Below, in pieces: positions 674 to 46,433 of a stretch of DNA of 64,000 bases. Both the position numbers and the translations under genes were made by a program. The stretch lies in the NCBI GenBank assembly GCA_963816185.1, contig CAWFJJ010000030.1, positions 514,981 to 578,980 on the forward strand, in the 5' to 3' direction. Every line of letters begins with the position of its first letter. The stretch's first letter is position 1. This stretch comes from Thermoanaerobaculia bacterium. Lineage in GTDB: Bacteria; Acidobacteriota; Thermoanaerobaculia; UBA5066. The notes beneath the pieces are model-generated. The model was not told the origin of the DNA, ran no database searches, and saw only the letters and a program-made list of their open reading frames with translations.

Positions 674-1905
674 GCGTCCTCCTGGAGCGTTTCGCCGGCA
701 CGCCGCTCCTTCCGATCGCCGAAAAGGTCGCGGAAGGCCGCCGTCTCTCGTTCGACGACGGCGTCGCCCTGTCCACGTCTCCCGACGTCCTCGGCGTCGG
801 TACGCTCGCGAACTTCGTGCGCGAGAAAAGGCACGGCAACACCGGCTACTACAACGTGAATCGCTACCTGAACCCCACGAACCTCTGCTGGGTGGACTGC
901 GCGCTCTGCGCCTGGGCGCGCAAGCCCGGCGTGGACGGCGGCTACACGATGTCCATCGAGGAGGCGGTCGCAGAGTCGGCCGCCGGATGGCACGACGGGA
1001 TCACCGAGCTCCACATCGTGGGCGGCCTCCACCCGTCGCTCCCCTACTCCTGGTACCTCGATCTCCTCCGGGCGCTCAAGTCCCGCTTCCCGGGCGTCCA
1101 CCTCAAGGCCTGGACGATGGTGGAGCTCGACTGGATCGCGCGTGTCGGAAAGCGCGACGTCGTCGACGTCATCCGCGACCTGAAGGCCGCCGGCATGGAC
1201 TCGTGTCCCGGCGGAGGCGCCGAGATCTTCGCGAAGAGGGTCCGCGACGTCATCTGCCGCGACAAGATCTCCGGAGAGCGCTGGCTCGAGGTCGCGCGCC
1301 TCTGCCACGAGAACGGCGTGAGGACGAACGTCACGATGCTCTACGGCAGCATCGAGACCGTCGAGGAGCGCGTGGACCACCTCGTGCGCATCCGCGAGCT
1401 GCAGGACGAGACGGGGGGCTTCCTCGGCTTCATTCCGCTCGCGTTCCATCCCGAGGAAACGCAGCTCCCCCATCTGCCCGCGGCGACGGGCCTCACGGAC
1501 CTCAAGGTCATCGCCGTCGCGCGCCTCATGCTCGACAACGTCGACCACGTCAAGGCGTACTGGGTGCAGATCGGCGAGAAGCTCGCGCCCGTCGCGCTCC
1601 ACTTCGGCGCAGACGACCTCGTGGGCACGGTGACGGAGGAGACGATCACGCACGCGGCGGGCGCCAAGACCGAGGCCGGCCTTTCGCGCGCCGAGATGGA
1701 GCGCATGATCCGGGGCGCCGGCCGGGAGCCCTTCGAGCGCGACGCGTACTACGAACGCGTTGTGCGGGATGAGGCCGGTCACGTGCTACGAGCCAACCGG
1801 CGGGATTTCGAGAATAGGAAAAGAGAAGATTCTTCGAAGGTGGGGGGAAAAAACCCCGACCTCGTTTCGCCGGCGCGTCTCGACGCCTCGATCGCCTCGA
1901 GCTAA
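670..1905 (+). CDS. mqnE: Aminofutalosine synthase MqnE (CofH-like radical SAM)
   Basis: NRYLNPTNLCWVDCALC radical SAM motif, plus ELHIVGGLHP, PGGGAEIF, FIPLAFHPEET, HVKAYW and ERDAYY. Confidence 0.85.
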   Translation: MSVLLERFAGTPLLPIAEKVAEGRRLSFDDGVALSTSPDVLGVGTLANFVREKRHGNTGYYNVNRYLNPTNLCWVDCALCAWARKPGVDGGYTMSIEEAVAESAAGWHDGITELHIVGGLHPSLPYSWYLDLLRALKSRFPGVHLKAWTMVELDWIARVGKRDVVDVIRDLKAAGMDSCPGGGAEIFAKRVRDVICRDKISGERWLEVARLCHENGVRTNVTMLYGSIETVEERVDHLVRIRELQDETGGFLGFIPLAFHPEETQLPHLPAATGLTDLKVIAVARLMLDNVDHVKAYWVQIGEKLAPVALHFGADDLVGTVTEETITHAAGAKTEAGLSRAEMERMIRGAGREPFERDAYYERVVRDEAGHVLRANRRDFENRKREDSSKVGGKNPDLVSPARLDASIASS

Positions 1906-2064
1906 CGGACCCGGCCTCTCCGCCCCGCCGGCACGCCGGCACGCCGGCCGCGGCTGAAGTGTTTGCACCATTTATTTGTCTCGACTCATTGCCGAGAGTC
2001 GTTGCGTGAATGACAATCGGGGCGCTCCTAACGCCGCCTCAGGGTTTCGGGGGAATGACCGATC

Positions 2065-2652
2065 GTGGTGATCTCGTGCATTCTCGCTTTGACGCTTGTG
2101 TCCCGTCCGATTTCGACCTCTCCGGTGGTCGCGCTGCAGCCGCTCGGCGAGGTGAACGAGAGCGTCGTCGAGAACCTCGCGCGGAACCTGGGCTCACTTT
2201 TCGGGCTGAACGTCACCGTTCTTCCGAAGGAGCCCTTGCCCGAATCCGCTTACTACGCACGGCGAGACCGGTACCGTGCCGAAGATCTCGTGGCGTTCCT
2301 CGACCGCACCACCGCGGCCGCGATTCCTCACGTCCTCGGCGTCACGTCCCGGGACATCTCGGCGCCGAAGGGAGACGTCGCGGACTGGGGCGTTCTCGGA
2401 GTCGCTAGGCTCGGCGGACGGCCCGGCGTCGTCTCGACGTACAGGCTGCACGCGGGCGAGGCGTCTGAGGCGATGTTCTCGCAGAGGCTCGACCGCGTCG
2501 CCGCGCACGAGCTCGGCCACGCGCTCGGCCTTTCGCACTGCCCGAATCCGCACTGCCTCATGCACGACGCGGAAGGCACCATCCGCACCGTCGACTTCGC
2601 GACCGGATTCTGCGAGAAGTGCATCCGGGCCCTCGCGGAGAAGCTCCGCTAG
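2065..2652 (+). CDS. Archaemetzincin-like (M54) zinc metalloprotease
   Basis: HELGHALGLSHCPNPHCLM metzincin motif and C-terminal FCEKC. Confidence 0.85.
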   Translation: MVISCILALTLVSRPISTSPVVALQPLGEVNESVVENLARNLGSLFGLNVTVLPKEPLPESAYYARRDRYRAEDLVAFLDRTTAAAIPHVLGVTSRDISAPKGDVADWGVLGVARLGGRPGVVSTYRLHAGEASEAMFSQRLDRVAAHELGHALGLSHCPNPHCLMHDAEGTIRTVDFATGFCEKCIRALAEKLR

Positions 2653-2659
2653 GTGCGCG

Positions 2660-4231
2660 TCACTCGGGCTTGATGGCCGCGAGGAACTTCAGAGCCTGTC
2701 CCCGCCCGCCGCCGCGCTCGATGTAGAAGCGGATGTACTTGCCCTTCGGCGCTTTCCGGATCTGCGCCTGCAGCTCCTCCACCGTCCCCACGGGCGTGCC
2801 ATTCACCTCGAGGATGACGTCGCCTTCCTGGAGGTTCGCGTCGCCCGCGGGCGAGACCGGCCTGACGTGGGTGATGATGACGCCCTTCTGGATATCCCGG
2901 TCCAGGCCGTAGGCCCGGCGCGCCTGCGGCGTCAGCTCGTCGAGCTCGAGGCCGAGCATCTTCTGCTTGCCGGCCTTCGAATCCTCTTCTTCCCTGGCCG
3001 GCTTCTCGCCGATATCCGGCCTCTCCTCGAGGGTCGCGACCGCGGTCTTCTCCTTGCCGTCGCGGAGGTACGCGATCGAAATCTTGGAGCCGGGTGCCTT
3101 GCCCGAAACGTAATCGATGAGATCGCGGTTGTTCTTCACCGTGACGTCGTCGACCTTCGTGATGATGTCTTCGTGCTTCAGGCCGGCTTTCTCGGCGGGT
3201 TTGCCGGGCTCGACCGAGTTCACGAGGGCGCCTTCGGGCTTCTTCAGGTCGTAGGTCTCCTGCAGCTTCTTGTCGATCGACTCGATGCTCACGCCGAGGA
3301 ATCCGCGCACGACCTTGCCCTTCTTGAGCTGGGGCAGGAGGCGCTTGGCCATGTTCACGGGCACCGCGAAGCCGATGTTCTGCGCGAAGTTGTTCTGCCC
3401 GCGCGCCATCGCGGTGTTGATTCCGATCACCTCTCCGGCCACGTTCACGAGCGGGCCGCCCGAGTTGCCGAAGTTGATCGCGGCGTCGGTCTGCAGGAGG
3501 CTCTCGAAATTCGCGGTCGCGCGCGAGAGGCCCGCGTACCGGCCCTTGCCGGAGATAACGCCCACGGTGACGGACTTGTCGAAGTTGAGAGGGTCGCCGA
3601 TCGCCATGACCCATTCACCGACGCGGATCCGGTCCGAATCTCCAAGCCTCACGATGGGAAACGGCCGGGGGCCGTCGATCTTCAGGAGCGCGAGATCCGA
3701 GGCCGGATCGCGGCCCACGACCTTCGCCGCGTAATCGTCCGTGTCGCCGACCTTGACCTCGATCTTGTCGGCGCCGTCGATGACGTGGTTGTTCGTGAGG
3801 ATGTAGCCGTCACTCTCGATGATGAAGCCCGTGCCTCCCGAAAGCTGCTTCTGGTCCTCATCGTTGTCCGAGCCCCTGCGTCTCGGACCCTCCGGGCCGA
3901 AGAAGAACTCGAACGGGTCGGAGCCGTCCGGGTTTCCGAAGTTATGGAAGCTCCGGCCGCGCAGCTGGTCGGCCTTGATGATGTCCGTCGCCGTCACCGA
4001 GACGATGGCCGGCGTGACCTGCTCGACGATGTCGGCGAACGACGGCAGCGCGACCATCTGAGGAGCGCGGGCGGCTGCGGCCGTCACGGCGGCGGGGGCG
4101 GCAGCCCTCTTCTGAGCGGAAGCGAGCTTCGTGAAGTCCAGGCTTCCGGCCAGGATCATCCCGAAGACGACCGAGCCGGCGAGGAGAGCGGCGAGAGACA
4201 GAACCTTCGTTTTCGTACGCATACCGTCCAT
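2660..4231 (-). CDS. htrA: Do/DegP-family (HtrA) serine protease with two PDZ domains
   Basis: TNNHVI, DLALLKI and QTDAAINFGNSGGPL motifs; N-terminal anchor; two PDZ-like repeats. Confidence 0.92.
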   Translation of the reverse strand: MDGMRTKTKVLSLAALLAGSVVFGMILAGSLDFTKLASAQKRAAAPAAVTAAAARAPQMVALPSFADIVEQVTPAIVSVTATDIIKADQLRGRSFHNFGNPDGSDPFEFFFGPEGPRRRGSDNDEDQKQLSGGTGFIIESDGYILTNNHVIDGADKIEVKVGDTDDYAAKVVGRDPASDLALLKIDGPRPFPIVRLGDSDRIRVGEWVMAIGDPLNFDKSVTVGVISGKGRYAGLSRATANFESLLQTDAAINFGNSGGPLVNVAGEVIGINTAMARGQNNFAQNIGFAVPVNMAKRLLPQLKKGKVVRGFLGVSIESIDKKLQETYDLKKPEGALVNSVEPGKPAEKAGLKHEDIITKVDDVTVKNNRDLIDYVSGKAPGSKISIAYLRDGKEKTAVATLEERPDIGEKPAREEEDSKAGKQKMLGLELDELTPQARRAYGLDRDIQKGVIITHVRPVSPAGDANLQEGDVILEVNGTPVGTVEELQAQIRKAPKGKYIRFYIERGGGRGQALKFLAAIKPE

Positions 4232-4311
4232 AGATGATAGATCCTCGTCGAGGACGGCCTCTGCCGTCTTCCTTTCACGTTACGGGCAAAGATCGTGCCG
4301 GGCCTGTAGTG

Positions 4312-4740
4312 TCAAAGCGACATCCGTCCAAGAGCGGCATGGTCGCGGAAGATGCAGCGGTCCATCGCCACGGGAATGCCAGCGGCCGCGAGGCGGCGGG
4401 CCGCCTCCTCGTCCACCACGCCGTCCTGCATCCAGAAGAATCCCGCTCCGCGCTCGAGAGCTGCGTCGGCGATCGAGGACACGAACTCCGAGCGCCGGAA
4501 GACGTCCACGACGTCGAGGCGCACGTCCCTCGGAATGGAGGCGAGATCCGGATAGCACCTTTTTCCCAGAATCTCGGCATGGCCGGGGTTCACGGGAATC
4601 ACGTCGAATCCCGCGCTCAGGAGATAGCTCGCGATCGCGTGCGACGGGCGGCTTTCTTCGGGCGAGCAGCCCACGACCGCGATCGTCCTGGCGGTTCTCA
4701 GGGCGCGAGCGATTTCCGCGGGGTCGTTGATGCCTGCCAC
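4312..4740 (-). CDS. CoA-binding protein (YccU-like)
   Basis: TIAVVGCS…RPSH, VIPVNPG, DVVDVFRRS, WMQDGV and MDRC motifs. Confidence 0.9.
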   Translation of the reverse strand: MAGINDPAEIARALRTARTIAVVGCSPEESRPSHAIASYLLSAGFDVIPVNPGHAEILGKRCYPDLASIPRDVRLDVVDVFRRSEFVSSIADAALERGAGFFWMQDGVVDEEAARRLAAAGIPVAMDRCIFRDHAALGRMSL

Positions 4741-4748
4741 CCCGCCTC

Positions 4749-5879
4749 CTATCGCGGCCGGCCCCTGTCGGCGTACTCGTCTTCGGGGCGCATGTTGTAG
4801 AAGAACGTCACCGTCACACCCTCCCTGTCGTGCCCGAGGTCGCTCGGCAGCGGGCGAAACGCGCTCGAGCGCGCGATGGCCTGGAAAGCGGCGTTGTCGA
4901 AAGGGGGACGCCCGGAGGGCGAAAGCACGGTCTCACCTTCGACGCGGCCGTCCTTCAGGATGTAGAAGCGGATCGTGATCCGGCCCTTCATGCCGTAGCG
5001 CGCGAGTGCCGGCACGTCCCAGTTCCGCTTGATCTTCCGGATCATTTCCGCCGCGTACGCTCCCCAGTCGTACCCGACGGTGTCGAACGAGAGCGGCCCC
5101 GAGTCGACGAATCCCCCTTCACGATCGAAGCCGCCTCCCTCCTCTCCGCCGCCGCCGGACTGGGCGGCTTTGCGGGCCGCGTCGGCGGTGATCGCGCCGA
5201 GGTCGGGACCGGGTATGCCGAGCAGCCTCCGCCGGGCGGCCCGCTCTTCGGCCGTCGGTGGATCGTGCAGCGGGCCGGCGGTCGCGAGGTCCGTGAGCTT
5301 CCGCCTCTCACCCGAAGGGCTTCCAAGGGGCGCTTGCGCGGCCGGCGCCGGGGCGATCCTCGGTCCCGCTCTCCCGGCCTCGAGGTCGCGAATGCCCGCC
5401 TGTGGAACTGCCTTCGGCACGGGCAGCACCGGGAGGGTGCGGTCCCCCCCGTGCGCCTGCCGGTTCATGTCCGACGGCAGAGAGGTCTTCGGCGCCTCCT
5501 TCGCGCGCGCACCCGGCGCCGGAAAAAACTGAATCGGGATCGCCGGATCGGGCGGTGTCGAGCTCATGAGGCTCTGGATTCCGAGCGGATCCAGCGCGTT
5601 CTGCGCGGCGGTGCGCGCGGGAAGCTTCACGGTCAGGAGGGCGATGACCAGGAGGAGGTGCAGGATGACCGAGACCGCGAACGCGCGTTCGGTGTTGATG
5701 CGCCGCGAGTCGCGCTGGACGACCGCGCCCGCCGGGAGGAACTCCGGCGCGGGCAGGATCGCCTTCTCGTCGAACGGATCCTCTCCGGGGGGCAGGCCCT
5801 TCTCGGGGGGCCAGGCCTCGACGGTTTCCGCGCCCTCGACAAATTCGTCGTTCAGGGAGATGACGATGAGATCGCTGAT
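4749..5879 (-). CDS. TonB/TolA-family energy transducer protein (start probably non-canonical)
   Basis: C-terminal TonB_C domain (IKRNW…FYILKDGRV…FDNAA…FRPLP). The frame stays open upstream of 5630 through a SVILHLLL membrane anchor. Candidate ATC start at 5879 follows GAGGA. Confidence 0.75.
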   Translation of the reverse strand: MSDLIVISLNDEFVEGAETVEAWPPEKGLPPGEDPFDEKAILPAPEFLPAGAVVQRDSRRINTERAFAVSVILHLLLVIALLTVKLPARTAAQNALDPLGIQSLMSSTPPDPAIPIQFFPAPGARAKEAPKTSLPSDMNRQAHGGDRTLPVLPVPKAVPQAGIRDLEAGRAGPRIAPAPAAQAPLGSPSGERRKLTDLATAGPLHDPPTAEERAARRRLLGIPGPDLGAITADAARKAAQSGGGGEEGGGFDREGGFVDSGPLSFDTVGYDWGAYAAEMIRKIKRNWDVPALARYGMKGRITIRFYILKDGRVEGETVLSPSGRPPFDNAAFQAIARSSAFRPLPSDLGHDREGVTVTFFYNMRPEDEYADRGRPR

Positions 5880-5994
5880 GTGCTTCCTCGGGAGGGCGAT
5901 TCGTGGCGCGCCGGACCACCCCCATGGGAAGTCCGTGCCAGATCGGTCCGTTGCGCATGTTACGCGGTCTCAGGCCTTTTCAGGCGCTCGACCC

Positions 5995-6023
5995 TTGCCC
6001 CGGGACGCCTCACGGCCTATAAT
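5995..6023 (+). promoter_or_regulatory. Sigma70-type promoter of the rimP-nusA-infB operon
   Basis: TTGCCC (5995-6000), 17-bp spacer, TATAAT (6018-6023). Confidence 0.75.
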
Positions 6024-6050
6024 TCGCCAGCGGACTTTCAAGGGGCTTGA

Positions 6051-6076
6051 AAGGGGGCACACGCCCTCTTTTTTTT
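6051..6076 (+). terminator. rimP-leader attenuator-like hairpin
   Basis: AAGGGGGC-ACAC-GCCCTCTT followed by T6, located between the promoter and rimP. Confidence 0.7.
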
Positions 6077-6113
6077 GCCCCAAACGGGCTCAAGAAAGGT
6101 ACGAAACGGTTTC

Positions 6114-6584
6114 ATGGATCAGGCGGTGCTCCCCTTCGACGACGTCACGGTGGACCTTCTTCGGACGCGCATCGGCGCGCTCTCTCTGGAGCTCTGCCAC
6201 GTCGAATGGAAGAGAGGATCACGCGCCACGCTGACGCTCACCGTGGACAAGCCCGCCGGTGTGACACTGGAGGACTGCGAGGCCGCGTCGCACGCAGCGT
6301 CGGAAATTCTCGACCCCCTCGAGGAGCAGCTTCCGAAGTACGCGCTCGAGGTTTCCTCCCCCGGCCTCGATCGGCCCCTGTGGACTCTCGCGGACTTCAC
6401 ACGCTTTCGCGGCCGGCGCATCACCGTGCGACTCGCCGGGAAGGTAGAGGGCGCCGCGCGCCTGAAGGGCGTCCTGGAAGAAGTCCGGGGGGATTCCCTG
6501 ACCGTCCTTGATGAGGATCAGCGCCGACGATACACTGTGCGATTCGGCGACGTCCGGCTCGCACGCCTCGTCCCCGAGCTCTGA
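6114..6584 (+). CDS. rimP: Ribosome maturation factor RimP
   Basis: GVTLEDCE and YALEVSSPGLDRPL motifs; sits upstream of nusA. Confidence 0.95.
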   Translation: MDQAVLPFDDVTVDLLRTRIGALSLELCHVEWKRGSRATLTLTVDKPAGVTLEDCEAASHAASEILDPLEEQLPKYALEVSSPGLDRPLWTLADFTRFRGRRITVRLAGKVEGAARLKGVLEEVRGDSLTVLDEDQRRRYTVRFGDVRLARLVPEL

Positions 6585-6615
6585 ACAGAATGCGGCCCAC
6601 GGAGAACACGACACG

Positions 6616-11633: not shown

Positions 11634-11640
11634 GGCGTTC

Positions 11641-11973: not shown

Positions 11974-11999
11974 ACGATCCGCTGAAAGCAGGTGACGAC

Positions 12000-14343: not shown

Positions 14344-14346
14344 CGT

Positions 14347-17033: not shown

Positions 17034-17037
<4 letters not shown>

Positions 17038-18746
17038 TTTTCTTTCTTCCGCACGCGCCGCTCCGGCGGCGCGACCCCTTCGGGGGCGATGCCCGTGTTC
17101 GACCTGTCGCCGGAGTCGAGCCAGTAGCGGGCGGAAGCCACGCCCGCGTCACGATCGTGATCGTCGCCGCCCTCGGCGAGATAACGCTCGATCTCCGCCG
17201 CCCCTGCCTCCGGCGAGACTTTCGCCTCGACGAGCGTCGCGTAGACGAGTGCGTCGGCGAAGCGGTGCCTGCCGGCGGGGATCGTGGACGGCAGGAGCGG
17301 CACGAGAGACAGCGCACCCGCCGTCACGACCAAAAGGCCCGCGGCCCGAAATCTGCGATCCTGCATTTCTTTGAAGATGAAGAGAAGGAAGAAGCCCGCG
17401 CCGAGGGCCAGCGGGCCGGCCATCGCGGCGCGGTAGCGGGATGTGGTCTGGACCAGCAAACAGGCCGCGAGCGGCACGAGAATCGCGACGAGCGCCAGCA
17501 ACCCCTCTTCCTTTCTCAGCACGCGGCGCGACAGCGCCGCGCAAAGGCCGACTCCCCCTATTCCGAGCAGACAGGAAAAGACCGGGAGAATTCTCAGAAT
17601 CGTCAATCGGTCCCGGAAAAAATAGAAACTCGCGTTGTCCGGAATCTCGAACGCATTGAAGAACGTCGCGAGCTTCTTCAGGAAGAGCTTCGGCAGCTCG
17701 AGCGGCGCGCCTCTGTAGCTCTCGAGGACGAGACGCGCGGTGCGCAACGTGGAGCCCCGTGCCTTCTCGAGCATCTCGTCCATCCCCGGCGGCGACATCG
17801 TCGTCGCGTTCGCGCCGCGCGCGTTGCCCCAGACGAGGCCGATGGCCTGCCGCGTGTCGAAGGTCAACGGCGGTACGCCGGCGGAGATGTTGCGGGCGGC
17901 GAGAACGGCGAGCGGGATCGCGAGGCCCAGGGTGCCGAGGAGAAGAACGCCGCCGCGCTTCGCGCCGCCCGGGGATTTCTTAGAAGGTGAATAAAGAGAA
18001 TAAAGGCAATAGAGAGACGCGAGCGCCAAGGGTGCGATCGTCTGCTTCAGCAGGATCGCCAGGCCGCCGAGGAGGCCGAGAAGGAAAGGAGAAGACCTTT
18101 TCCGCGCGATCAGCGGCCAGGCCAGCAGCAGCGTCGAAAGGTGCGCGACGGGTCCGTCGCGCAGCAGGAAACCGTCGTGGAAAACGAGCGGGCCGTAGAG
18201 CCCGTAAAAGACCCCCCCCAGTGTGGCCGCGACCGCGGCGGCGGTGCTGCGCTCCTGCGCCTCGGGCGAAGCTCCGCCGGCGCCGTCCCCCTCCCCTCTT
18301 CCCCTTCTAAGAAATTCTTCTCTCCTCCTCCCTAACTCGAAGACCGCCAGGGCGAGTACCGCGCTTGCGAGACACGCGAGAAGGAGCTGCAGGACTCTCG
18401 CCGGCCAGACGGGCGAACCGAAGGCGAGGCGGAGGACCGCGAGGCCGTACGGATAGAGCGGACCCGAAAAGTACGCGTTCTTCTGATACCAGCCTTCCCA
18501 GTCCTCCGGACTCCCGTAAGCCTCCTGCCACGCGAAGTAGGAACGCCACGCGGGCACGTCGCGCCAGTTGCCCGCGGCGAGGTGTGCAGACCAGTCGACA
18601 TATCCCCATTCGTCCGTCTGTGTCCAGAGATGCCACAGCGAAAGCGGCGTTCTGGAGAGCGACACGAGATATGCCCCCCTCACGACGAAGACCGCGAGAA
18701 AGACCGTGACGAAGACGGCGCGACCGCGTCGGGCTCGTGAAGACAC
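17034..18746 (-). CDS. Multi-pass membrane protein, ArnT/GT39-like glycosyltransferase
   Basis: Many TM segments; N-terminal TDEWGY acidic motif; PLYPY, YGPLVFHDG and SRYR. Start position uncertain. Confidence 0.7.
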
Positions 18747-18890
18747 GCAGGGATTCTAGGAGACTCGTTCGCGGTGCTCGTTCTCACGCCGCCCTCGGCA
18801 CGATCCCATCCGCGGCCGGCGGTTCTGGCGCTATCTGGTAAATTCCCCGCGTTTGCGCCGGGGCGGAGAGAGACTCAAGAACAACACGAG

Positions 18891-19543
18891 ATGTCACAGA
18901 TCTTCAATCGAAGTACGAACGCCATCTCGCGCCTCTCGATCTGGGGCGCGGCGTTCATCCTCGGTGGCGTCGGATGGGCGGCGTCAATCCTGAACCGCTC
19001 CGCCTACAACACGAACCAGGGCGTCACGGTGAAGCAGCCCGTGCCTTTCGGCCACGAGCACCACGTGGCCGGCCTCGGCATCGACTGCCGCTACTGCCAT
19101 TCCTTCGTCGAGAAGAGCGCCTCGGCCGGCATCCCGCCGACGGCGACCTGCATGAACTGCCACAAGATCATCTGGAACGACAGCCCGATGCTCGAGCCCG
19201 TCCGCGAGAGCTTCCGGACCGGAAAGCCGCTGAACTGGAGGAAGGTCTACGACCTGCCCGACTTCGTGTACTTCGACCACAGCATCCACGTGGCGAAGGG
19301 AGTCGGGTGCGTCACGTGCCACGGCCGCATCGACAAGATGCACCTCACCGCACAGTTCCCGTCTCTCCAGATGGAGTGGTGCATCGCCTGCCACCGCAAC
19401 CCGGAGAAATCCCTGCGTCCGAAGGAGAAGATCTTCGACCTGACCTGGACCGCGGCCGACCAGGAGACGCTCGGACGAGAGCTCGCGAAGAAGAACCACC
19501 TCCGATCGACGATCGCGCTCACGAACTGCAGCACGTGCCATCG

Positions 19544-19547
<4 letters not shown>
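18891..19547 (+). CDS. actA: Alternative complex III multiheme cytochrome c subunit ActA
   Basis: Five CxxCH motifs (CRYCH, CMNCH, CVTCH, CIACH, CSTCH); QPVPFGHEHH. Confidence 0.93.
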
Positions 19548-22450
<2,903 letters not shown>

Positions 22451-22455
22451 GGCGA

Positions 22456-23834
<1,379 letters not shown>

Positions 23835-23838
<4 letters not shown>

Positions 23839-24452
23839 GGACCTTTCTCGCGAGGCTCTTCGCCCGCCACGTCAGGCCTGAATTCGGCAAGCCGGGCCCG
23901 CGCCAGGAAGGCGGGGACCTGCCGCCGCACCTTTACGGCGTCATCGCCGAGTTCGCGAAGCCCGAGTCGCTCGTTCACGCGGTTCACGCGGTCCGCCAGG
24001 AGGGGTACCAGGTGATCGAGGCCTATACGCCCTATCCGATCGAGGAGCTGCACGACGCCATCGGCCACGGCCCTTCGCGCGTGCCGCTCCTCGCCCTGAT
24101 CGGCGGGATTCTGGGCGGCCTCTTCGGATTCTTCCTCCAATACTGGACCTCCGCGGTCGATTTCCCGCTGAACATCGGCGGGCGCCCGTACAACAGCTGG
24201 GTCTCCTTCATCCCGATCACGTTCGAGTGCACGATCCTCTTCGCGGGCATCGCGACCGTGCTCGGCATGCTCGTGCTGAACGGCCTGCCGATGCCGTACC
24301 ACCCGGTCTTCTCCGTGCCGCGCTTCCAGCTCGCTTCGCGCGACCGGTACTTCCTGATGATCCTCGCGCGCGACCCTCGCTTCCGTGCCGGCGACACGTT
24401 CCGCTTCATGGAGACGCTCGGCGCGAGCCACGTCTCGGACGTGGAGGACTGA
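23835..24452 (+). CDS. actD: ACIII ActD (DUF3341)
   Basis: AYTPYPI, NIGGRP and FIPITFE motifs; operon position. Confidence 0.9.
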
Positions 24453-25174
24453 TGCGCCGGGATCTCTTCCAGGCCGGCGTGCCCTTTCTCGTGCTCCTCG
24501 TCGGCGGCTGCCGGAACGACATGCATCACCAGGCCAAGATCAAGCCGTTCCGCGAAAGCACGTTCTTTGCGGACGGCACCTCGGCCCGCCCATTGCCGGA
24601 GGGCACCGTCGCACGCGGCTTTCTCCGCGCCGACGCCGCGCTCTGGCGCGGCCAGGGGCCGGACGGCAAGTTCGTCGAGCAGATCCCCGTGCCCCTCACA
24701 CGCGAGCTCCTTCTGCGCGGCCAGGAGCGCTTCAACATCTTTTGCTCGCCGTGCCACGGCCGGACGGGCGAGGGTCAGGGCATGATCGTGCAGCGCGGCT
24801 TCAAGCGCCCGAATTCCTTCCACGTCGACCGCCTGCGAGCCGAGCGCGCGGGCTACTTCTTCGACGTCATCACGAACGGCTTCGGCCAGATGTCGAGCTA
24901 CGCCGTGCAGGTGACGCCCGAGGACCGCTGGGCGATCGTCGCGTGGATCCGAACCCTCCAGGCCTCCCAGCACATGCCCGGGAGATTTCTTAGAAAGGGG
25001 ACCGAGAAGAATTGGACCGTGTTCCCGAATGAGCGATGTCAAGGGTCAAAGACCGCAGCGCGGCGCGCAAAGCGCGCGCTCTCGGGGGCTTACTTCGGGA
25101 GCCCCCGGACCCCCGTGTCGCCGCATATCAGAAGAACTCTCTTCCCCGGGTGCACATCCAGTTCCCGCAGCTGA
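24452..25174 (+). CDS. actE: ACIII ActE monoheme cytochrome c lipoprotein (aberrant C-terminal tail, possible frameshift near 24995)
   Basis: Lipobox VGGC; DMHHQAK; CSPCHG; WAIVAWIRTLQ. The tail after ~24990 looks non-homologous. Confidence 0.85.
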   Translation: MRRDLFQAGVPFLVLLVGGCRNDMHHQAKIKPFRESTFFADGTSARPLPEGTVARGFLRADAALWRGQGPDGKFVEQIPVPLTRELLLRGQERFNIFCSPCHGRTGEGQGMIVQRGFKRPNSFHVDRLRAERAGYFFDVITNGFGQMSSYAVQVTPEDRWAIVAWIRTLQASQHMPGRFLRKGTEKNWTVFPNERCQGSKTAARRAKRALSGAYFGSPRTPVSPHIRRTLFPGCTSSSRS

Positions 25175-25207
25175 CATTGCCTCGCCCTCTTAACTTCTAA
25201 GAAATCT
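24983..25207. repeat. 225-bp segment bounded by a 13-bp perfect inverted repeat (AGATTTCTTAGAA / TTCTAAGAAATCT)
   Basis: IR at 24983-24995 and 25195-25207; internal GC-rich hairpins. Confidence 0.7.
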
Positions 25208-25233
25208 TCCTCTTCGTCTTCTTCCGAAACAAA

Positions 25234-26421
25234 ATGACCGAATCCCGCTGGGCCCCACCCCTCGCCGATCTCGCCGCCCTCGGGCGGCGCGGCCTCGTCA
25301 TTGGGACGCTTGCCGCCCTCGTCTCGGCGGCCGGCCTCGTCGCGAACCCCGTCCAGTTCTACCGCTCGTACCTCGTGGCCTTCGTCTTCGTCCTCGGCGT
25401 CACACTGGGCAGCCTCGCGATCTCGATGCTCCATCACATGTCGGGCGGCGCGTGGGGGCTCGTCATCCGCCGCATCCTCGAAGCGTCGACGCGCACGCTG
25501 CCGCTCGTCGCGCTCTTCGCGGTCCCGCTCCTTTTCGGGCTCAGGTACCTCTACCCGTGGGCCGACGCGGCCCGGGTCGCGGGGGACGAGATCCTGCGGC
25601 ACCGCGCGCCCTACATGAACCCGACCTTCTTCACCGTCCGGCTCGCGTTCTGCCTGCTCCTGTGGACGGTCTTCGCGCGGGCGCTGAGCCGCCTTTCCAG
25701 GAAGCAGGATGACGCGCCCGTGCCGGGCCTCGAGCGCCGGATGCAGCTCGTCGCGGCGCCCGGGCTCGTCGTCTACTGCCTCCTCGTCACGATCGCCTCG
25801 GTCGACCTCCTCATGTCGCTCGACCCGCACTGGTACTCGGCGATCTACGGCATGTACGTGGTCGGCGGTCAGGCCATCTCGGGCATGGCGTTCACGCTCC
25901 TCGTCAGCCTGTTCCTCGTGCGGAAGGGGCCGATGCGGGGGGTCCTCCAGCCCCGCCACGTGCACGACCATGGAAACCTCCTCCTTGCCTTCACGATGCT
26001 CTGGGCGTACTTCGCGGTTTCGCAGCTCATCATCATCTGGTCGGGAAACCTGCCCGAGGAGATCGGCTTCTTCCACGACCGGCTCAACGGCGGATGGGGC
26101 GCCCTTTCGTTGTTCCTCGCCCTCTTTCAATTCGCCGTTCCCTTCGTTTTTCTCCTGTCTCGAGACTTCAAGCGCGACATCGGGAAGCTGGCCTGGGCCG
26201 CGGGGCTCCTTCTCTTCATGCGGTGGGTGGATCTCTTCTGGCTCGCCTCTCCCGCCTTTCACCCTGGCGGGCCGCACCTCCACTGGCTGGACCTCACGAC
26301 GCCCGTGGCTCTCTCCGGCCTCTGGCTCGCAGCGTTCGCACGCGAGTTGGGAACGCGCTCGCTCCTCCCGGCGAACGATCCGAACCTCGCGGTCGCCCTG
26401 GAGGTGGCCGCCCATGGCTGA
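25234..26421 (+). CDS. actF: ACIII ActF membrane subunit
   Basis: GGAWGLVIRRILEA, MSLDPHWYS, WAYFAVSQLIIIWSGNLPEE. Confidence 0.9.
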   Translation: MTESRWAPPLADLAALGRRGLVIGTLAALVSAAGLVANPVQFYRSYLVAFVFVLGVTLGSLAISMLHHMSGGAWGLVIRRILEASTRTLPLVALFAVPLLFGLRYLYPWADAARVAGDEILRHRAPYMNPTFFTVRLAFCLLLWTVFARALSRLSRKQDDAPVPGLERRMQLVAAPGLVVYCLLVTIASVDLLMSLDPHWYSAIYGMYVVGGQAISGMAFTLLVSLFLVRKGPMRGVLQPRHVHDHGNLLLAFTMLWAYFAVSQLIIIWSGNLPEEIGFFHDRLNGGWGALSLFLALFQFAVPFVFLLSRDFKRDIGKLAWAAGLLLFMRWVDLFWLASPAFHPGGPHLHWLDLTTPVALSGLWLAAFARELGTRSLLPANDPNLAVALEVAAHG

Positions 26422-33347: not shown

Positions 33348-33376
33348 CGGGCGAGGCCGTCGCGTCTTCGGCGTCC

Positions 33377-33646: not shown

Positions 33647-33671
33647 GGCGTACCTCCCGGACTCCGCTTTT

Positions 33672-37936: not shown

Positions 37937-37971
37937 GGGCCGAGGTGACCAGAAAGGACTATGATCTGGTC

Positions 37972-38210: not shown

Positions 38211-38264
38211 AGAGCTTCGTCCTCGTCGATCCGTATCCCCACCCCCCCCGGGAGCCCCTGAACC

Positions 38265-39980: not shown

Positions 39981-39985
39981 GAGGC

Positions 39986-40356: not shown

Positions 40357-40396
40357 CGGGTCAGCGCGGGCCGAGCGAGCCTAGGGCCCCCCGAGG

Positions 40397-41206
40397 TCAG
40401 TGGCCCTGCTGGCCCTGCTGCTTCTTCATCATCTCCTCGAACTGCTTGCGCTGCTCGGGAGTCATCTTCTCCATCGCCTTGCGCATCGCCTCGGCCGCTT
40501 CCGGCGAGACGACCCCGGCCGCGCCCATCATCCCTTCCTGCTTCGTGTAGCCGGCCGGGATCTCGAACAGCGAGGCGGGGAGCGACTTCTTCTCGGCTTT
40601 CGTGAGCTCCATCGTCGTCAGGACATCGGCCTTCCCTTTTTCGCGGGTCACCATCTTCACGAAGAAGCCGTCCGCCCCGGCGTCCCGGAGCGCCTTCAGG
40701 AACGAGCCTTCGTCCTGGCTCGAGCCACGGCGCATGAGGCCGCGCACCGACTCGTAGTTCAGGCCGTGGATGTCCTTCGTCGTCCAGAGCTCCATTTCCG
40801 ATTTGTCTCCTTTGCGGGCGAGAAGGACGTGCTTCGTGGAATAACCGAACATCCTCTCGGAGCCCAGGACCTTGACGGTGTACGGCTCCTTGTCCGCCGT
40901 CATCTTCGAGGCCGACTCGCGCATCTTCTTCACGTCCATTTCGGAGTACGTCTTCGCTTTGTCGTTGATGAGGTAGACGATGTCCGGATTCGCGAACTTC
41001 ATGAGCGAGACCATGTGCATCGGCATCTGGGCCGACTGCATGTCGATCTCGGTCCGCGAGCCGACGCGCGACACGAACGATTTGCCCGTCCCCGTCATGC
41101 CCCCCTGGCTCGTGATCTTCATGTCGATCTCGCCTTCGAACTGCGCGAATGCCGGAGCCGCGGCCAGGGCGGCGCCCGCGAGGACGCTCAAGAGAACTCT
41201 CTTCAT
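40397..41206 (-). CDS. Secreted DUF4412-like protein
   Basis: Signal peptide ending AFAQ; FEGEIDMK; KTYSEMD; LFEIPAGY. Confidence 0.75.
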   Translation of the reverse strand: MKRVLLSVLAGAALAAAPAFAQFEGEIDMKITSQGGMTGTGKSFVSRVGSRTEIDMQSAQMPMHMVSLMKFANPDIVYLINDKAKTYSEMDVKKMRESASKMTADKEPYTVKVLGSERMFGYSTKHVLLARKGDKSEMELWTTKDIHGLNYESVRGLMRRGSSQDEGSFLKALRDAGADGFFVKMVTREKGKADVLTTMELTKAEKKSLPASLFEIPAGYTKQEGMMGAAGVVSPEAAEAMRKAMEKMTPEQRKQFEEMMKKQQGQQGH

Positions 41207-41259
41207 GGAATCTCCTTTTGATCGATGTACAGAATGAGCGATCAACAGGTGATTCTATC

Positions 41260-43698
41260 TCAGCTCGCCCGCAGCGCGACGACCTGGCGCTCCTCGAACG
41301 AGACGACGACGAGCGTCTGGTCGTCCTCGGGCGGGCGGTTGCGCGTGAAGCTCTTCACGGACTCGAGGAGAGCCTGCTTGAGCACGTCCGCGCCTTTTTC
41401 GCCGCGCGAGAGGATGACGCCCTCGAACCGCTCGAAGCCGAACGGCTCGCCGTCGTCGTTGAGCGCCTCGATGAGACCGTCGCTGTAGAGCACGAGGCGG
41501 TCGCCCGGCTCGAATCCGACGACGAACTCGCGGAACGGCTCGCGCCGCTTCACGCCGAGCGGAAATCCCCAGGACGACAGCAGCTCGAGCTTCCGCTCGC
41601 GCGCGCGGAAGACGTACGGGTCGAGATGGCCGGCGGACGCGAACCGCAGCGTCGAGCTCGCGGAATCGAGAACGCCGTAGAAGAACGTCATGAGCATGCG
41701 CTTCGGCGCGGTCTTCATGACGATGTCGTTCAGGACCTCGAGAACCCGGGCGGGCGAGGGGTCGTGCCGCACCTGGACGAGGAGAGCCGCCTTCGTCATC
41801 GCCATCACGATGCCGCTCGTGAGGCCGTGCCCGGCCACGTCGCCGAAGGCGAGCCCGAGCCGGCCCTCTTCGAGCGGCAGGAAATCGAAGTAGTCGCCGC
41901 CGATCTCCGTCGCGGCCCGGTAGTGCGAGACCACTGAGGCGTTCTCCAGCTCGGGATGGACGGAGGGCAGGAGCGCGGCCTGGATGCGGTTCGCGGCGTC
42001 GATCTCGGCCTTGATGCGCTCGCGCTCGACGATGCGCTTGACGTGCGGCGCGAGGTCCTCGTAGGAGTAGACGATCGTGCGGCGCGTCGCAAGGCCGGCG
42101 ACCGCGACGAGAGCGATCCCGGCGAGCGGGAGGGCGAGCGCGAGAAGCGGCCCCGTGCGGGCCGGGCCGGACGCCGCGACGCAGAGCGGCACGAGGCAGA
42201 GGAGGAGGCCTCCGCCGAACGCCGCCGTCGACGCCGCGAGGAGATCGGAGAAGGCGAAGACGAGGAGGACGACCGCGATTCCGCCGAAGCCTACGGCGAG
42301 CCCCCGGCCGAACGGCGCGACGGGCGGCGGGAGAACGCCCATGAGCGTCCCGAAGAGCGCCGCGAGGACGACGCCGACGGCAAGGAGGCGCTTGCGGTGG
42401 AAGAAGGCGAGGAAGAAGAGGAGGCCGGCGCTCGCGAAGAGGAGCGCGTCGAGGGCCGCCCCCGCATTGACGGCGAGGGGCCCCCAGATCGCGTTCAGGC
42501 CGTCGCGCGTGCCGGGCGCGAGGCGCGCCCAGACGGCGCCCGCACGATACGGGAGTGCGGGGACGAGGAGCGCCGCCGCGGCGACGGCGGGGGCCGCGAG
42601 GAGGCCGGCGAGGAGCGAGCCGCCGACCGCCGCGTTGCGCACGTCGCGCCGGAGGAGCGCATCGAATGACGCGAGGCGCTCGCCCCAGCGCTCGCGCGCG
42701 AAGCTCTCGCCGACCGACCACGCGAGGAAGACGAGGACCGAAAGCGGGATGTCGTAGAAGAGGAAGCGAAAGCCCGAGACCGCGAGCGTCGTCGTCCGGT
42801 TGTCGATGCTCCCGAGCCCCGTCCCGGTGGCCGCCCACGGGGACGTCAGCGCGTTGTGGAGGATCGAGAGCCCGATCGCCGCGGCGAAAAGGACGGCGCC
42901 CGTCCCGACGCCCACCTCGCCCGCGTGGTACTTCTTCAGGAAGATCGCAAGCAGAATGAAGAGAAGCGAGAAGATCCCGGCGAAGCGCAGGAACGTCTCG
43001 CCGACGCCCGAGTCGTACGCGAAACGGCGGCCGTCCTTGTACTCCTCGATGAGCGACCAGCCCGCGGGCACGTCGCCGATGTAGCTCACGTAGAGGTAGC
43101 AGACGACGTCGCCGGTCGGGAAGGTCGACGGCACGCGGTAGCGGAACGTGGTGTCCGTGCGCGAACGCAGCACCGTCGGGCGCGCGTCCTCGTAGACGGG
43201 GCCCGGCGCACCGAGAAAGGCCCGCGACGCGACGTACGCGTCCGCCTTCGCCTTGAGGTCGTCCGCCTTCGGCGACGCGCCCGTTTCCTCGAGGCGGGCC
43301 TCCCGCATCGCGGCGACGACCTCCCCGGTTCGCGACACGGCGACGAAGCCGTAGGGCGGGTATTTGTCGACGCCGTTGCGCCAGTACGTGACGCGGAACC
43401 CGAAGATGCGCGGCCCGAGGACGGGGTCGGACTCCGCCTTCCGCCGCAGGTCCGGCTTGTCGCGGAGCTCCTTGTCGAGGAGGGGCGAGTCGTCCACGGT
43501 CGTCACGACAAATGCCTTGTCGACCTCGATTCCCCACTTCCGCGCCTCGGCGTCCGCGATCTGCCGGACCCGTCCGCGGGTCACCGTCAAGCCCCGCGGT
43601 TCGGGAGCGTCGTAGAGCGGGACGAGGACGGCGAGAAGAGCCGCCCCGGCGATCCCGGCGACCGCGAACGCACCTGTCCTCGTAGCGGCGCGCATCAC
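41260..43698 (-). CDS. Membrane-bound SpoIIE/RsbU-family PP2C phosphatase
   Basis: Extracytoplasmic region and multiple TM helices, then IGGDYFD, GDVAGHG, SAGH, YSDGL and DDQTL. Confidence 0.9.
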   Translation of the reverse strand: MMRAATRTGAFAVAGIAGAALLAVLVPLYDAPEPRGLTVTRGRVRQIADAEARKWGIEVDKAFVVTTVDDSPLLDKELRDKPDLRRKAESDPVLGPRIFGFRVTYWRNGVDKYPPYGFVAVSRTGEVVAAMREARLEETGASPKADDLKAKADAYVASRAFLGAPGPVYEDARPTVLRSRTDTTFRYRVPSTFPTGDVVCYLYVSYIGDVPAGWSLIEEYKDGRRFAYDSGVGETFLRFAGIFSLLFILLAIFLKKYHAGEVGVGTGAVLFAAAIGLSILHNALTSPWAATGTGLGSIDNRTTTLAVSGFRFLFYDIPLSVLVFLAWSVGESFARERWGERLASFDALLRRDVRNAAVGGSLLAGLLAAPAVAAAALLVPALPYRAGAVWARLAPGTRDGLNAIWGPLAVNAGAALDALLFASAGLLFFLAFFHRKRLLAVGVVLAALFGTLMGVLPPPVAPFGRGLAVGFGGIAVVLLVFAFSDLLAASTAAFGGGLLLCLVPLCVAASGPARTGPLLALALPLAGIALVAVAGLATRRTIVYSYEDLAPHVKRIVERERIKAEIDAANRIQAALLPSVHPELENASVVSHYRAATEIGGDYFDFLPLEEGRLGLAFGDVAGHGLTSGIVMAMTKAALLVQVRHDPSPARVLEVLNDIVMKTAPKRMLMTFFYGVLDSASSTLRFASAGHLDPYVFRARERKLELLSSWGFPLGVKRREPFREFVVGFEPGDRLVLYSDGLIEALNDDGEPFGFERFEGVILSRGEKGADVLKQALLESVKSFTRNRPPEDDQTLVVVSFEERQVVALRAS

Positions 43699-43757
43699 CC
43701 TTGTCCAACGCAGCCGGAAAAGAAATGTTTCGGCCGAAGAGAAGAACCCCGGAGGAC

Positions 43758-43844
43758 TTTCTTAGAAGGGTGTGTGTGGTCTCGGCGGCGAGCGCCGCTA
43801 CGTCGGCTCGGAACGCCCTGGCAGTCACTCATTCTTCTAAGAAA
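43758..43844. repeat. 87-bp segment bounded by an 11-bp inverted repeat (TTTCTTAGAAG / CTTCTAAGAAA)
   Basis: 43758-43768 and 43834-43844; the right copy contains the trpB2 stop codon. Confidence 0.65.
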
Positions 43845-45219
43845 TATTTGGGTTCTCGGGAACCTTCGGGAGGTGCGTCATCGCCTCCTCGACCGCGTGG
43901 TCGGGATACTCGAAATCCTTCAGCTCGCCGGCGTGGTAGCTCTGATAGGCGCTCATGTCGAAGTGGCCGTGGCCCGAGAGGTTGAAGGCGATGACCTTCT
44001 TCTCTCCCGTCTCCTTGCAGCGCAGCGCCTCGTCGATCGCCGCGCGGATCGCGTGCGCGGACTCCGGCGCCGGGATGATTCCTTCCGCCTTCGAGAACTG
44101 GACGGCCGCATCGAACGTCTCGAGCTGCTTGGCCGAGCGGGCCTCGACGTCGCCGTGCGCGACGAGCGCGCTCACCGAGGGCGCCATCCCGTGGTATCGC
44201 AGTCCGCCCGCGTGGATGCCAGGCGGGACGAACGTGTGCCCGAGCGTGTACATCTTGACGATCGGCGCCATCGCGGCCGCGTCGCCGTAGTCGAACGTGT
44301 AGCGCCCCTTCGTGAGCGTCGGGCAGGAGGCGGGCTCCACGGCCATGATCCGCGTCCTCTTCCCCTCCGTGAGGTTGCGGTGGACGAAGGGGAACGCGAA
44401 GCCCGCGAAGTTCGATCCGCCTCCCGCGCACGCGATCACGACGTCGGGATACTCGCCCGCCATCTCCATCTGCTCGAGCGCCTCCAGCCCGATCACGGTC
44501 TGGTGCATCAGGACGTGGCCGAGGACCGAGCCGAGGCTGTACTTCTTCGCACCGCCGCTCGTCGCCGCCACCTCGACCGCCTCGGAGATCGCGATCCCGA
44601 GGGAGCCCGGAGAGCCGGACGACTCGGCGAGGACCTTCCGGCCGAACTGCGTCCTCGAGGTCGGGCTCGCGAACACCTGCGCGCCGAAGTTCTCCATGAT
44701 GTGCCGGCGGTACGGCTTCTGGTGGTACGAGACCTTCACCATGAAGACCTCGAGGTCGAGCCCGAAGAAGCTGCACGCCATCGCGAGGGCCGAGCCCCAC
44801 TGTCCGGCTCCGGTCTCGGTCGTGAGCGCCTTCGTCCCGGCCTCCTTGTTGTAGAAGGCCTGCGCGACTGCCGTGTTCGGCTTGTGCGAGCCGACCGGGC
44901 TCACGCTCTCGTTCTTGTAGTAGATGTGGGCCGGCGTGTCGAGCGCCTTCTCGAGCCTCAGGGCGCGGCACATCGGCGTCGGACGCCAGAGCCGGTAGAT
45001 CTCCCGCACGGGCTCGGGGATCTCGACCCAGCGCTCGGGCGAGACCTCCTGCATCACGATGTTCATTGGAAAGAGGACGGACAGGAAGTCCGGCGTGACG
45101 GGCTCCATCGTTCCGGGGTGCAGGACCGGCGACGGGGGCACGGGCATGTCCGCGTTCACGTTGTACCAGGCCTTCGGCAGCCTCGAATCGTCGAGCTGGA
45201 ATCTCACGGTCCGGGTCAT
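43837..45219 (-). CDS. trpB2: TrpB-like PLP-dependent enzyme (TrpB2)
   Basis: [32 protein letters not shown] and [10 protein letters not shown]. Confidence 0.93.
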
Positions 45220-45287
45220 GGGTCCTCCCTTCCGGAAAGGCGCGACGATAGCGCAGACCGCCGCGGACTCCGATATCCTTGCGTCGC

Positions 45288-46433
45288 ATGGAGTCGATCG
45301 TCGTCACCGGCGGGGCCGGTTTCATCGGCTCGAACTTCGTGCGGCTCGCCCTCGCCGAAACGCCCGACCGTGTCGTCGTCGTCGACAAGCTCACGTACTC
45401 GGGTCATCGCGCGAGCCTCGCGGACGTCGAGACGAACCCGAGGTTCACGTTCGTTCAGGCCGACATCGCGGACGCCGCCGCGATGAAGGCCGTCTTCGCG
45501 GCCCACCGCCCGCACGCCGTCCTGAACTTCGCCGCGGAGACGCACGTCGACCGGTCGATCGACGGTCCGGGCGCGTTCGTCCATACGAACGTCAACGGCA
45601 CGTACGAGCTTCTCGAAGCTGCGCGTGTCCACGTCGCCTCCCAGCGCCCGGCCGACGCCGAACGTTTCCGCTTCCTCCACGTCTCCACGGACGAGGTCTA
45701 CGGAACGCTGGGCGGGTCGGGTCTCTTCTCCGAGGAGACGCCCTACGCGCCGAATTCGCCGTACGCCGCGTCGAAAGCCGCCGCGGACCATCTCGTGCGC
45801 GCCTGGCGCGAGACGTACGGCCTCGCGACGCTGCTCACGAACTGCTCGAACAACTACGGGCCGTACCAGTTCCCCGAGAAGCTGATCCCGTTGATGATCC
45901 TGACCGCCCTCGAGGGGAAGCCTCTCCCGATCTACGGCGACGGCGGCAACGTGCGCGACTGGCTCCACGTCCAGGACCACTGCCGAGGCATCCTCCTCGT
46001 CCTCGAGAGGGGGGCGCCCGGAGGCAAGTACAACATCGGGGGCGGCAACGAACGGACGAACCTCCAGGTCGTCGACGCGCTGTGTGAGGCGCTGGAGAAG
46101 ACGGTTCCGTTCGAAGAGAACCCGAAGATTTCGGAGAAGATTTCTTTGAAGGGTAAGAGGGGATACGCGCAGCTCAAGACGTTCGTGGCGGATCGACCCG
46201 GGCACGACCGGAGATACGCGATCGATGCGACCAAGATCCGCCGCGAGCTCGGGTGGAGCCCCTCTTACTCATTCGAAGAAGGTCTTCTTCGAACCGTGGA
46301 GTGGTACCTGAGCCACCAGGAGTGGTGTGCGACCGTCCAGGCGGGAAATTACGGCCGCGAGCGCCTCGGCCTTGGGACCGGCGCCGGCGTCGGCACGGCC
46401 GCCGCCCCTCGCGCGGGCGGAGCCCGCGAATGA
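45288..46433 (+). CDS. rfbB: dTDP-glucose 4,6-dehydratase
   Basis: [33 protein letters not shown] and [12 protein letters not shown]. Confidence 0.96.

Follow-up and report, generated by a model that had tools for sequence, protein, structure and literature searches.

A dispersed, head-to-head paired repeat unit in genes and intergenic regions of a Thermoanaerobaculia genus

Why should a 10-nucleotide word, TTTCTTAGAA, recur six times within 64 kb of a bacterial genome of 67.2% GC, inside genes as well as between them? The stretch that raises this question (hereafter the window; C30:514981-578980, 64,000 nucleotides) belongs to a Thermoanaerobaculia assembly, G000, which comprises 5,088,052 bp in 30 contigs and is 94.9% complete. 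An initial annotation of the window had proposed that the word marks a signal in the DNA itself, maintained independently of the encoded protein. The comparisons described here bear this out: the word is the core of a longer repeat unit, a double-stranded-DNA signal whose upkeep or renewal does not depend on coding, as seen from identical nucleotides read in different frames (the tail of an ActE-like gene) and from the conservation of rare codons ending in A or T (in rfbB and rimO). The repeat belongs to no described repeat family, and we favour, tentatively, the reading that it is the binding site of a putative lineage-specific and probably dimeric protein, spread and renewed by templated copying in the manner of repetitive extragenic palindromic (REP) repeats and bacterial interspersed mosaic elements (BIMEs) or of a domesticated MITE (miniature inverted-repeat transposable element).

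Abundance, anatomy and pairing of the unit

The six exact copies lie where the initial annotation had placed them and form, as it said, three plus-then-minus pairs, with starts 329 bp (17976 and 18305), 209 bp (24986 and 25195) and 77 bp (43758 and 43835) apart; 0.02 copies were expected in the window, and none of 100 shuffles reached six. The enrichment extends to the genome as a whole, for which expectations were taken from an order-4 Markov model, with the reversed word as a control: TTTCTTAGAA occurs 239 times in 5.09 Mb against 1.4 expected and 8 copies of the reversed word, the 12-mer TTTCTTAGAAGG 149 times against 0.2 expected, and the main variant TTTCTTCGAA 152 times against 19.6 expected. 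Within the window, TTCNNNGAA words number 26 against 13.9 expected. Sites were defined by at most two mismatches to TTTCTTAGAAGG, which gives 502 sites at 357 loci in G000 (240 on the plus and 262 on the minus strand), or about one locus per 13 kb. An nhmmer profile of the unit was set aside because it lacked sensitivity for a motif this short (383 hits at E <= 10), as was a position weight matrix scan, the control of which was contaminated because reversed purine tracts score too; mismatch counts were used instead.

Alignment of the 239 copies reveals an oriented unit of about 50-60 bp, which consists of a purine tract (often GAAGAGGAAGAGA or ...CCGGGGA), a TTTCTT(A/C)GAA core, and then GGTGAAGAGGG followed by a short G-rich stretch. 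Purine excess and GC skew on the motif strand span about -30 to +30 around the core, in keeping with the purine-rich flanks noticed at the outset. Since core positions C3, G7, A8 and A9 are nearly invariant while the centre varies, the strict part of the core is a dyad, TTC-N3-GAA, set in asymmetric flanks; in the logo of all copies only TTCTTAGAA is dyadic, both sides of the core are purine-rich on the same strand, and neither a GTAG nor a CGTC tag is present. The motif first described stands as the core alone, within a unit that is longer, oriented and, genome-wide, paired convergently at a spacing of 75-77 bp.

This pairing is directional. An inverted partner (again with at most two mismatches to the 12-mer) lies 30-270 nt downstream of 167 of the 238 exact cores, compared with an upstream partner for 4/238 and 17/238 for the reversed pattern, and site pairs 30-300 bp apart are plus-minus in 103 cases and minus-plus in 6. 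The pairs are thus convergent (head to head), with a sharp spacing peak at 75-77 bp (14 of 46 exact pairs). The interiors of 95 paired elements share no sequence, apart from one unrelated pair that matched, and when these interiors were compared with the genome by BLAST, nothing turned up but unrelated repeats of other families, lying within a few of the elements; the idea that the interior is captured DNA was rejected on this ground. Pairs 300-1430 bp apart (six exceed 300 bp) enclose ordinary genes, and neither plus-minus nor minus-plus distances show a peak up to 6 kb. In G000 no insertion sequence (IS) bounded by units was found, so that a parent IS between distant pairs was rejected as well; the initial annotation had named the end of a known IS as an alternative identity for the motif, and no IS with these ends turned up in G000.

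Selection does not act on base pairing between the arms. For full elements a fold with paired arms is predicted, but the folding z-score of the interior reaches -2 or below in only 4 of 37 elements, the other 33 being no more structured than shuffles. Arms are no more alike within than between elements (outer flanks 5.93 vs 5.89, inner flanks 5.20 vs 5.21; n=87), and the variable core position does not covary from arm to arm (0.57 observed vs 0.56 expected; n=90). With interior z-scores, arm-to-arm similarity and per-position covariation all null, selection for a hairpin was rejected, and each arm is best seen as an independent instance of the consensus.

Judged by the phase of GC content at third codon positions (GC3), sequence downstream of the core, into the element, is non-coding in 167 of 238 cases, and the upstream side carries coding signal on one strand or the other (107 and 77). 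Among the 52 elements with both flanks classifiable, 44 lie between co-directional genes. About one in ten exact cores (23/238) sits in a frame that stays open and is flanked on either side by coding signal; depending on frame and strand, the core then reads FLRRGRG, DFLEGEEG or SPSKKS. The patches at protein C-termini that were first described are mostly intergenic elements through which open frames are read. At unpaired sites between co-directional genes the purine strand is sense in 44 and antisense in 45. A role as a 'universal stop cassette' was rejected, because stop codons close all three frames in only 12 of 500 units.

Spread, turnover and nucleotide-level conservation

The 12-mer is found in all 18 other genomes of the genus (45-210 copies) and in none of 12 genomes from two other families of the order (0/10 without the unpublished G019 and G024). 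Within the same family, and among genomes of sister genera, G038, G039, G043 and G050 hold no copies and G055 holds 16 with the same paired structure. A search with a 19-mer, taking one genome per species, returned among the matches listed (80 of at least 116 stretches) almost only Thermoanaerobaculia or Acidobacteriota metagenome-assembled genomes (MAGs), the exceptions among them being one Aquifex-labelled MAG contig and one 'uncultured bacterium'; units also occur in contigs of unrelated soil metagenomes. More than 120 single matches of a 16-mer in unrelated viral contigs are taken as chance for an AT-rich word. Rfam at gathering thresholds found only a tRNA in the window, and an Rfam E-value search of 24900-25300 gave no match. 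The matches listed in a full-text literature search for either 10-mer are such things as primers and STAT sites, none of them concerning bacteria of this lineage, and a literature search on MITEs in Acidobacteria returned nothing on this repeat family.

Between species, units are gained or lost as 30-130 bp indels. The element at 43758-43844 is present in G000, G007 and G012, takes the form of abutting arms in G010, and is absent from G014, G036, G016, G008 and G037. In a gene tree of its flank (540 nt, mostly unresolved) G012 is sister to G003 (99/94), in which no cores were found upstream of that gene; this tree was rejected as evidence of polarity since it is mostly unresolved. At 22433, G000, G011 and G003 each carry one unit, G007 carries a complete convergent pair, and G008 and G001 are empty, and the stretch around 1829 is some 80 bp shorter in G011 and G003. 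Yet another syntenic locus carries, depending on the species, the left arm only, the right arm only, both, or only a purine and a pyrimidine tract. The 24 public runs consist of contigs from related strains and contain at most 0.32 of the words; of four that were compared in detail, one contained shorter, single-unit variants of the ActE junction (33-87 nt vs 238-249). No sign of inversion or excision was seen in these contigs, a kind of data that cannot reveal inversion.

Units persist at orthologous positions, as DNA. The element downstream of the ActE-like gene keeps its nucleotide sequence although different species translate it in different frames. Within the membrane-protein gene at 17034-18746, which has three unit sites, A and C are found in nearly all of 16 orthologues and B in 6/16. 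The unit at 17976 occupies the same codon position in all 16 orthologues aligned, that at 18305 is found in 14 of the 16 (partial in L013, absent in L014), and for the site at 17366 each of the five syntenic genomes carries a core with 1-3 mismatches at the corresponding position, the lengths differing by 0 or 1.

Units also replace conserved codons without insertion, a distinction that was examined against outgroup orthologues for three genes. The rfbB gene (45279-46433) carries a convergent pair, made of a unit in a loop and a second unit 131 bp downstream. The loop unit is present in all 11 genus genomes aligned, and the loop itself is missing in more distant genera. The second unit lies over a conserved segment with no indel relative to 12 outgroup sequences; nine of the 11 genus genomes have the codons TTC GAA GAA GGT CTT CTT where all 12 outgroup sequences have G/C-ending ones. 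Here GC3 falls to 0.27, against 0.89 in the rest of the gene, and A/T-ending codons of G000 are identical across the genus in 93 of 117 comparisons inside units (79%) but in only 43 of 299 elsewhere (14%).

The three units in rimO fall in a stretch that aligns without gaps to Thermotoga maritima RimO (4JC0), and when 22 genomes are aligned by codon none of the three sites contains a gap column. Site 3 occurs as two distinct allele classes and nothing in between, the ancestral ...GCC GAG GTG AAG GAG GAG... and the unit-bearing ...TTC GAA GAA AAA TCT TCG..., which differ by a replaced block of about 24-27 nt with sharp edges. The unit allele occurs in 7/8 genomes of the genus, 3/6 of the sister genus and 0/8 others, and its distribution cuts across the G065/G067 pair, being carried by the sister-genus genomes G071 and G067. 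Over the gene, identity of A/T-ending codons is 67/111 (60%) in units vs 80/309 (26%) outside them. Taken together, the differences in presence and the block replacements support the insertion or 'writing' process that was among the initial suggestions. That the unit overlies conserved codons and is held against GC-biased codon usage requires either that a host function is selected for or that the unit is driven by conversion or uptake; the present data are compatible with both.

Readings of the unit and their evidence

REP, BIME and REPIN (REP doublets forming hairpins) repeats are short and lineage-specific, occur in hundreds of copies as singlets and as inverted doublets of preferred spacing, form a hairpin of their own and are served by a REP-associated tyrosine transposase (RAYT). 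The unit described here resembles them in being short, lineage-specific and present in hundreds of copies, as singlets and inverted doublets with a preferred spacing, in lying mostly between co-directional genes and in persisting at orthologous loci. It differs in that a single unit contains no hairpin-forming palindrome but a 9-bp dyad flanked by purine tracts, in that units occur inside genes, where they can overwrite codons, and in lacking the GTAG or CGTC tags of REP repeats (PMC3733652). A RAYT-based REP system was rejected, as the Y1/RAYT family (PF01797) is absent from G000 and, of 14 further genus genomes, only 2 have it. By comparison, 27 of 31 genomes of the family's other genera carry Y1_Tnp (RAYT/IS200-like) genes as open frames of about 320 aa; RAYT genes retained by its relatives thus appear to have been lost in the genus with the repeat, and RAYT-poor and RAYT-bearing lineages offer a natural comparison for the role of such repeat systems.

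That a protein binds the unit, how the unit is copied and what it does for the cell are all things that we infer. On the reading favoured above, a lineage-specific and probably dimeric DNA-binding protein would recognise each unit as double-stranded DNA, with two head-to-head units, cores 75-77 bp apart, as the preferred arrangement, in which an interaction between bound units would span about 77 bp. Copying of the unit from a template would account both for 30-130 bp insertions and for block replacement without length change, after which units would be held at the nucleotide level by selection or by a conversion drive. The dyadic core, the lack of strand polarity, the absence of arm covariation and the sharp head-to-head spacing argue for recognition as double-stranded DNA, probably by a dimer, and the overwriting of conserved genes argues that something reads the repeat as DNA. 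The repeat mixes hallmarks of MITEs, of transposase-tended REP hairpins and of uptake signals, and combines mobile-like indels with nucleotide-level hold in the essential genes rimO and rfbB and with a head-to-head rule at about 77 bp that imposes no pairing constraint on the arms. This combination points to a DNA-reading protein and a copying mechanism that would be new to science, in a widespread uncultured soil lineage.

A number of observations weigh against this reading. No binding protein, transposase or recombinase was identified, and the Y1/RAYT family is missing from a nearly complete assembly. No IS with unit ends was found in G000, where long pairs hold ordinary genes and minus-plus distances lack a peak. 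No target-site duplication was seen in the aligned filled and empty sites, which are old and have their edges in low-complexity purine tracts. Loci are clumped (coefficient of variation of inter-locus distance 1.40; dispersion in 50-kb bins 2.07; 9 of 87 bins empty), a pattern that fits mobile DNA better than it does a purpose-built set of sites. The figure of 0.90 for conservation of the core between orthologous elements in non-coding sequence was counted only where both genomes had kept the core and is biased accordingly. Finally, rimO site 2 presents a graded codon series, CTC, CTG, TTG, TTA, in which decay is as possible as build-up; alongside the blocks at site 3 it indicates that both block and stepwise change occur.

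Clumping also bears on the initial suggestion of a chromosome-organisation site. The family differs from KOPS (FtsK-orienting polar sequences), Chi, matS, SBS (SlmA-binding sites) and NBS (Noc-binding sites) in having no orientation bias with respect to GC skew, the purine strand being the G-rich strand at 111 of 211 unpaired sites, in occurring on all large contigs (in an assembly where origin and terminus were not located) and in its copy number of about 500. A matS/SBS/NBS- or KOPS-like role is not favoured.

A bolder account, which we regard as unlikely, would make the unit a self-propagating 'written' DNA signal, for which a lineage-specific machinery would paste some 25-50 nt into or over chromosomal DNA, conserved genes included, and would restore the unit against GC-biased decay; that machinery could be uptake-biased recombination or a protein- or template-guided conversion system. 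If true, this would either be a molecular drive of the uptake type, the first outside Proteobacteria, or represent a novel class of genome editor that works from a template. It is also unlikely that the repeat is purely selfish, the MITE-like or solo terminal-inverted-repeat remnant of an old or extinct transposon with no host role; ectopic gene conversion would then keep its roughly 500 copies alike, and they would be tolerated only at harmless places. With MITEs, Correia elements and Rickettsia palindromic elements (RPEs) the repeat shares an architecture of inverted repeats spanning about 90-130 bp and presence/absence differences between relatives; RPEs are described as MITEs with in-frame copies translated in host proteins (PMC10969869), as happens here in protein loops. 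Left-only, right-only and both-arm variants at one locus, the clumped distribution and the patchiness in the sister genus (16 copies in G055, none in G039) fit this account too. Against it, the arms fit a common consensus but interiors are unrelated, so that only the ends are common to copies; single arms are common, target-site duplications were not seen in the aligned sites, and neither a source IS nor RAYT was found in G000. Moreover, conserved codons of rimO and rfbB are overwritten with length unchanged, and throughout a genus in which proteins diverge by 10-30% the arms, rare unit codons included, are held at the nucleotide level, which in a decaying parasite would need very frequent conversion.

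The uptake signal sequences (USS) of Pasteurellaceae and the DNA uptake sequences (DUS) of Neisseriaceae are clade-specific oligomers found in both orientations, in coding sequence where the peptide allows, sometimes as inverted pairs, and at fairly even spacing. A signal of this kind, by which unit-bearing alleles would be spread within and between species through DNA uptake or recombination drive, is a rather unlikely explanation. The family matches it in being lineage-specific, with hundreds of copies equally frequent in both orientations, and in units that arise without indels in conserved genes where the peptide tolerates them; alleles apparently cross species lines, as at rimO site 3 and at the site filled in G012 and empty in its gene-tree sister G003. 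ComEC is present in 8/8 genus genomes searched, but equally so in genera without the motif, and is therefore uninformative. The family is also roughly ten times sparser than uptake sequences, and clumped rather than even; its informative part, more than 25 nt, is far longer than known uptake sequences; and uptake explains neither why 70% of cores lie in convergent pairs that prefer 75-77 bp nor the insertion of whole elements with unique interiors. We consider improbable an element that acts in RNA, in which the arms would pair as a long stem in polycistronic mRNA (to be cut by RNase III, to block exonucleases or to couple translation) or the purine arm would serve as a Shine-Dalgarno-like ribosome pad. 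The position of 44 of 52 classifiable elements between co-directional genes would suit it, as would the convergent arrangement, which gives a 5' purine arm and a 3' pyrimidine arm in RNA from either strand, the AGAAGGTGA in the purine arm, the resemblance of the pyrimidine arm to the 16S 3' end, GGATCACCTCCTTTCTAAGGGATCTC, and the predicted folding of full elements. Yet the arms lack compensatory covariation, interiors are mostly no more structured than shuffles, unpaired units are sense and antisense alike, few units close all three frames, Rfam offers no match in the window or at 24900-25300, and pairs within the coding sequence of rfbB, rimO and the membrane-protein gene are ill-suited to terminators or coupling. 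As to chance or an assembly artefact, the likelihood is vanishingly small: short-read contigs do tangle at units (one chimeric joint in one run), which we count as no real support, whereas the genomic excess over expectation, the recurrence of units at orthologous positions in independently assembled genomes and their presence in unrelated soil metagenomes all contradict it, and cross-genome conservation refutes it.

Copies in the window and accompanying sequences

Copies of the unit in the window are collected in Table 1. All near-matches named by the initial annotation are present, those at 1830, 17367, 17591, 20431, 46130 and 46142 as TTCNNNGAA words and that at 22434 as TTGCTTAGAAAG; membership of the family is borne out for the sites at 1829, 17366, 22433 and 46141 and was not shown for 17591 and 20431. 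Most of its gene names agree with Pfam, the assignments being MqnE/CofH-like, ActB-like, ActE-like, PALP (TrpB-like) and RfbB, but its 'glycosyltransferase' at 17034-18746 has no match at E 1e-5.

Table 1 Units of the repeat family in the window, with the position of the core or matching word, the extent of the unit and its setting (ORF, open reading frame)
Feature	Core or word	Extent	Strand	Setting
Degenerate unit, ATTCTTCGAAGG	1829-1840	1809..1868	+	End of MqnE/CofH-like ORF 670-1905
Degenerate unit, TTTCTTTGAAGA	17366-17377	17346..17405	+	In membrane-protein ORF
Unit, exact core	17976-17985	17956..18015	+	In membrane-protein ORF 17034-18746 (minus), read ...SPSKKSPGG
Unit, exact core	18305-18314	18275..18334	-	Same ORF 17034-18746, read ...EEFLRRGRGEG; convergent partner of 17976, 329 bp
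Single degenerate unit, TTGCTTAGAAAG	22433-22444	22413..22472	+	At stop codon of ActB-like gene
Left arm	24986-24995	24966..25025	+	219-bp paired element from ActE-like gene to next gene (ATG 25234); ActE frame reads through
Right arm	25195-25204	25165..25224	-	Same ActE-side element, about 30 nt before ATG 25234
Left arm	43758-43767	43738..43797	+	Element of modal length, 87 bp core to core
Right arm	43835-43844	43805..43864	-	Its TAG is the stop codon of PALP (TrpB-like) ORF 43837-45219 (minus)
Unit, TTTCTTTGAAGG	46141-46152	46121..46180	+	In rfbB loop; half-copy at 46130 in its purine tract
Unit in rfbB		46257..46296	-	Over conserved segment, no length change; convergent partner of 46141, 131 bp

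The ActE-like cytochrome c (24385-25174) owes its C-terminal tail to read-through of the repeat; frame, length and sequence of this tail vary between species of the genus, that of G000 extending about 60 codons beyond the conserved end. In practical terms, units make called ORFs too long, give predicted proteins spurious tails and loops, and entangle assemblies built from short reads. One short-read contig from a public soil run joins window position 18288 to 25216, each beside a different unit. This chimeric joint is probably an assembly tangle at units, and the repeat is probably a cause of chimeric joins in de Bruijn assemblies of the lineage.

When 4 nt are skipped, 17 of 19 positions agree between the unit's pyrimidine strand (TCACCT-TCTAAGAAATCTC) and the 3' end of the 16S rRNA with the start of the spacer, TCACCTCCTTTCTAAGGGATCTC (G000:C1:445547), and the purine strand thereby holds a strong Shine-Dalgarno-like AGAAGGTGA; the match reflects in part mere purine richness.

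Other repeats and structures adjoin or nest in units. A perfect GC hairpin at 17950-17969 (GGCGGCGC-GAA-GCGCCGCC on the gene strand) adjoins the unit at 17976 in the membrane-protein ORF and is found in most of the 16 orthologues. Nested in the ActE-ActF element, at 25017-25080, lies a second, unrelated dispersed repeat of about 60 nt, with some 44 copies genome-wide, which starts with GTGTTCCCGAATGAGCGATGTCAAGGGTC, ends in a GCGCGC-AAA-GCGCGC hairpin and has no Rfam match. Outside the window, the interior of the paired element at G000:C28:225097-225261 holds a third repeat family, with 13 BLAST matches elsewhere in the genome at 76-98% identity.

At about 12 loci of G000 (for example C24:605759, C24:616474 and C8:329057), paralogous Ser/Thr-kinase-like genes carry a variant of the unit, TTCGAAGAAA, at the same loop position (...YSFEEIPGSS...RHLLVMEL...), which indicates that some copies of the unit were multiplied by gene duplication.

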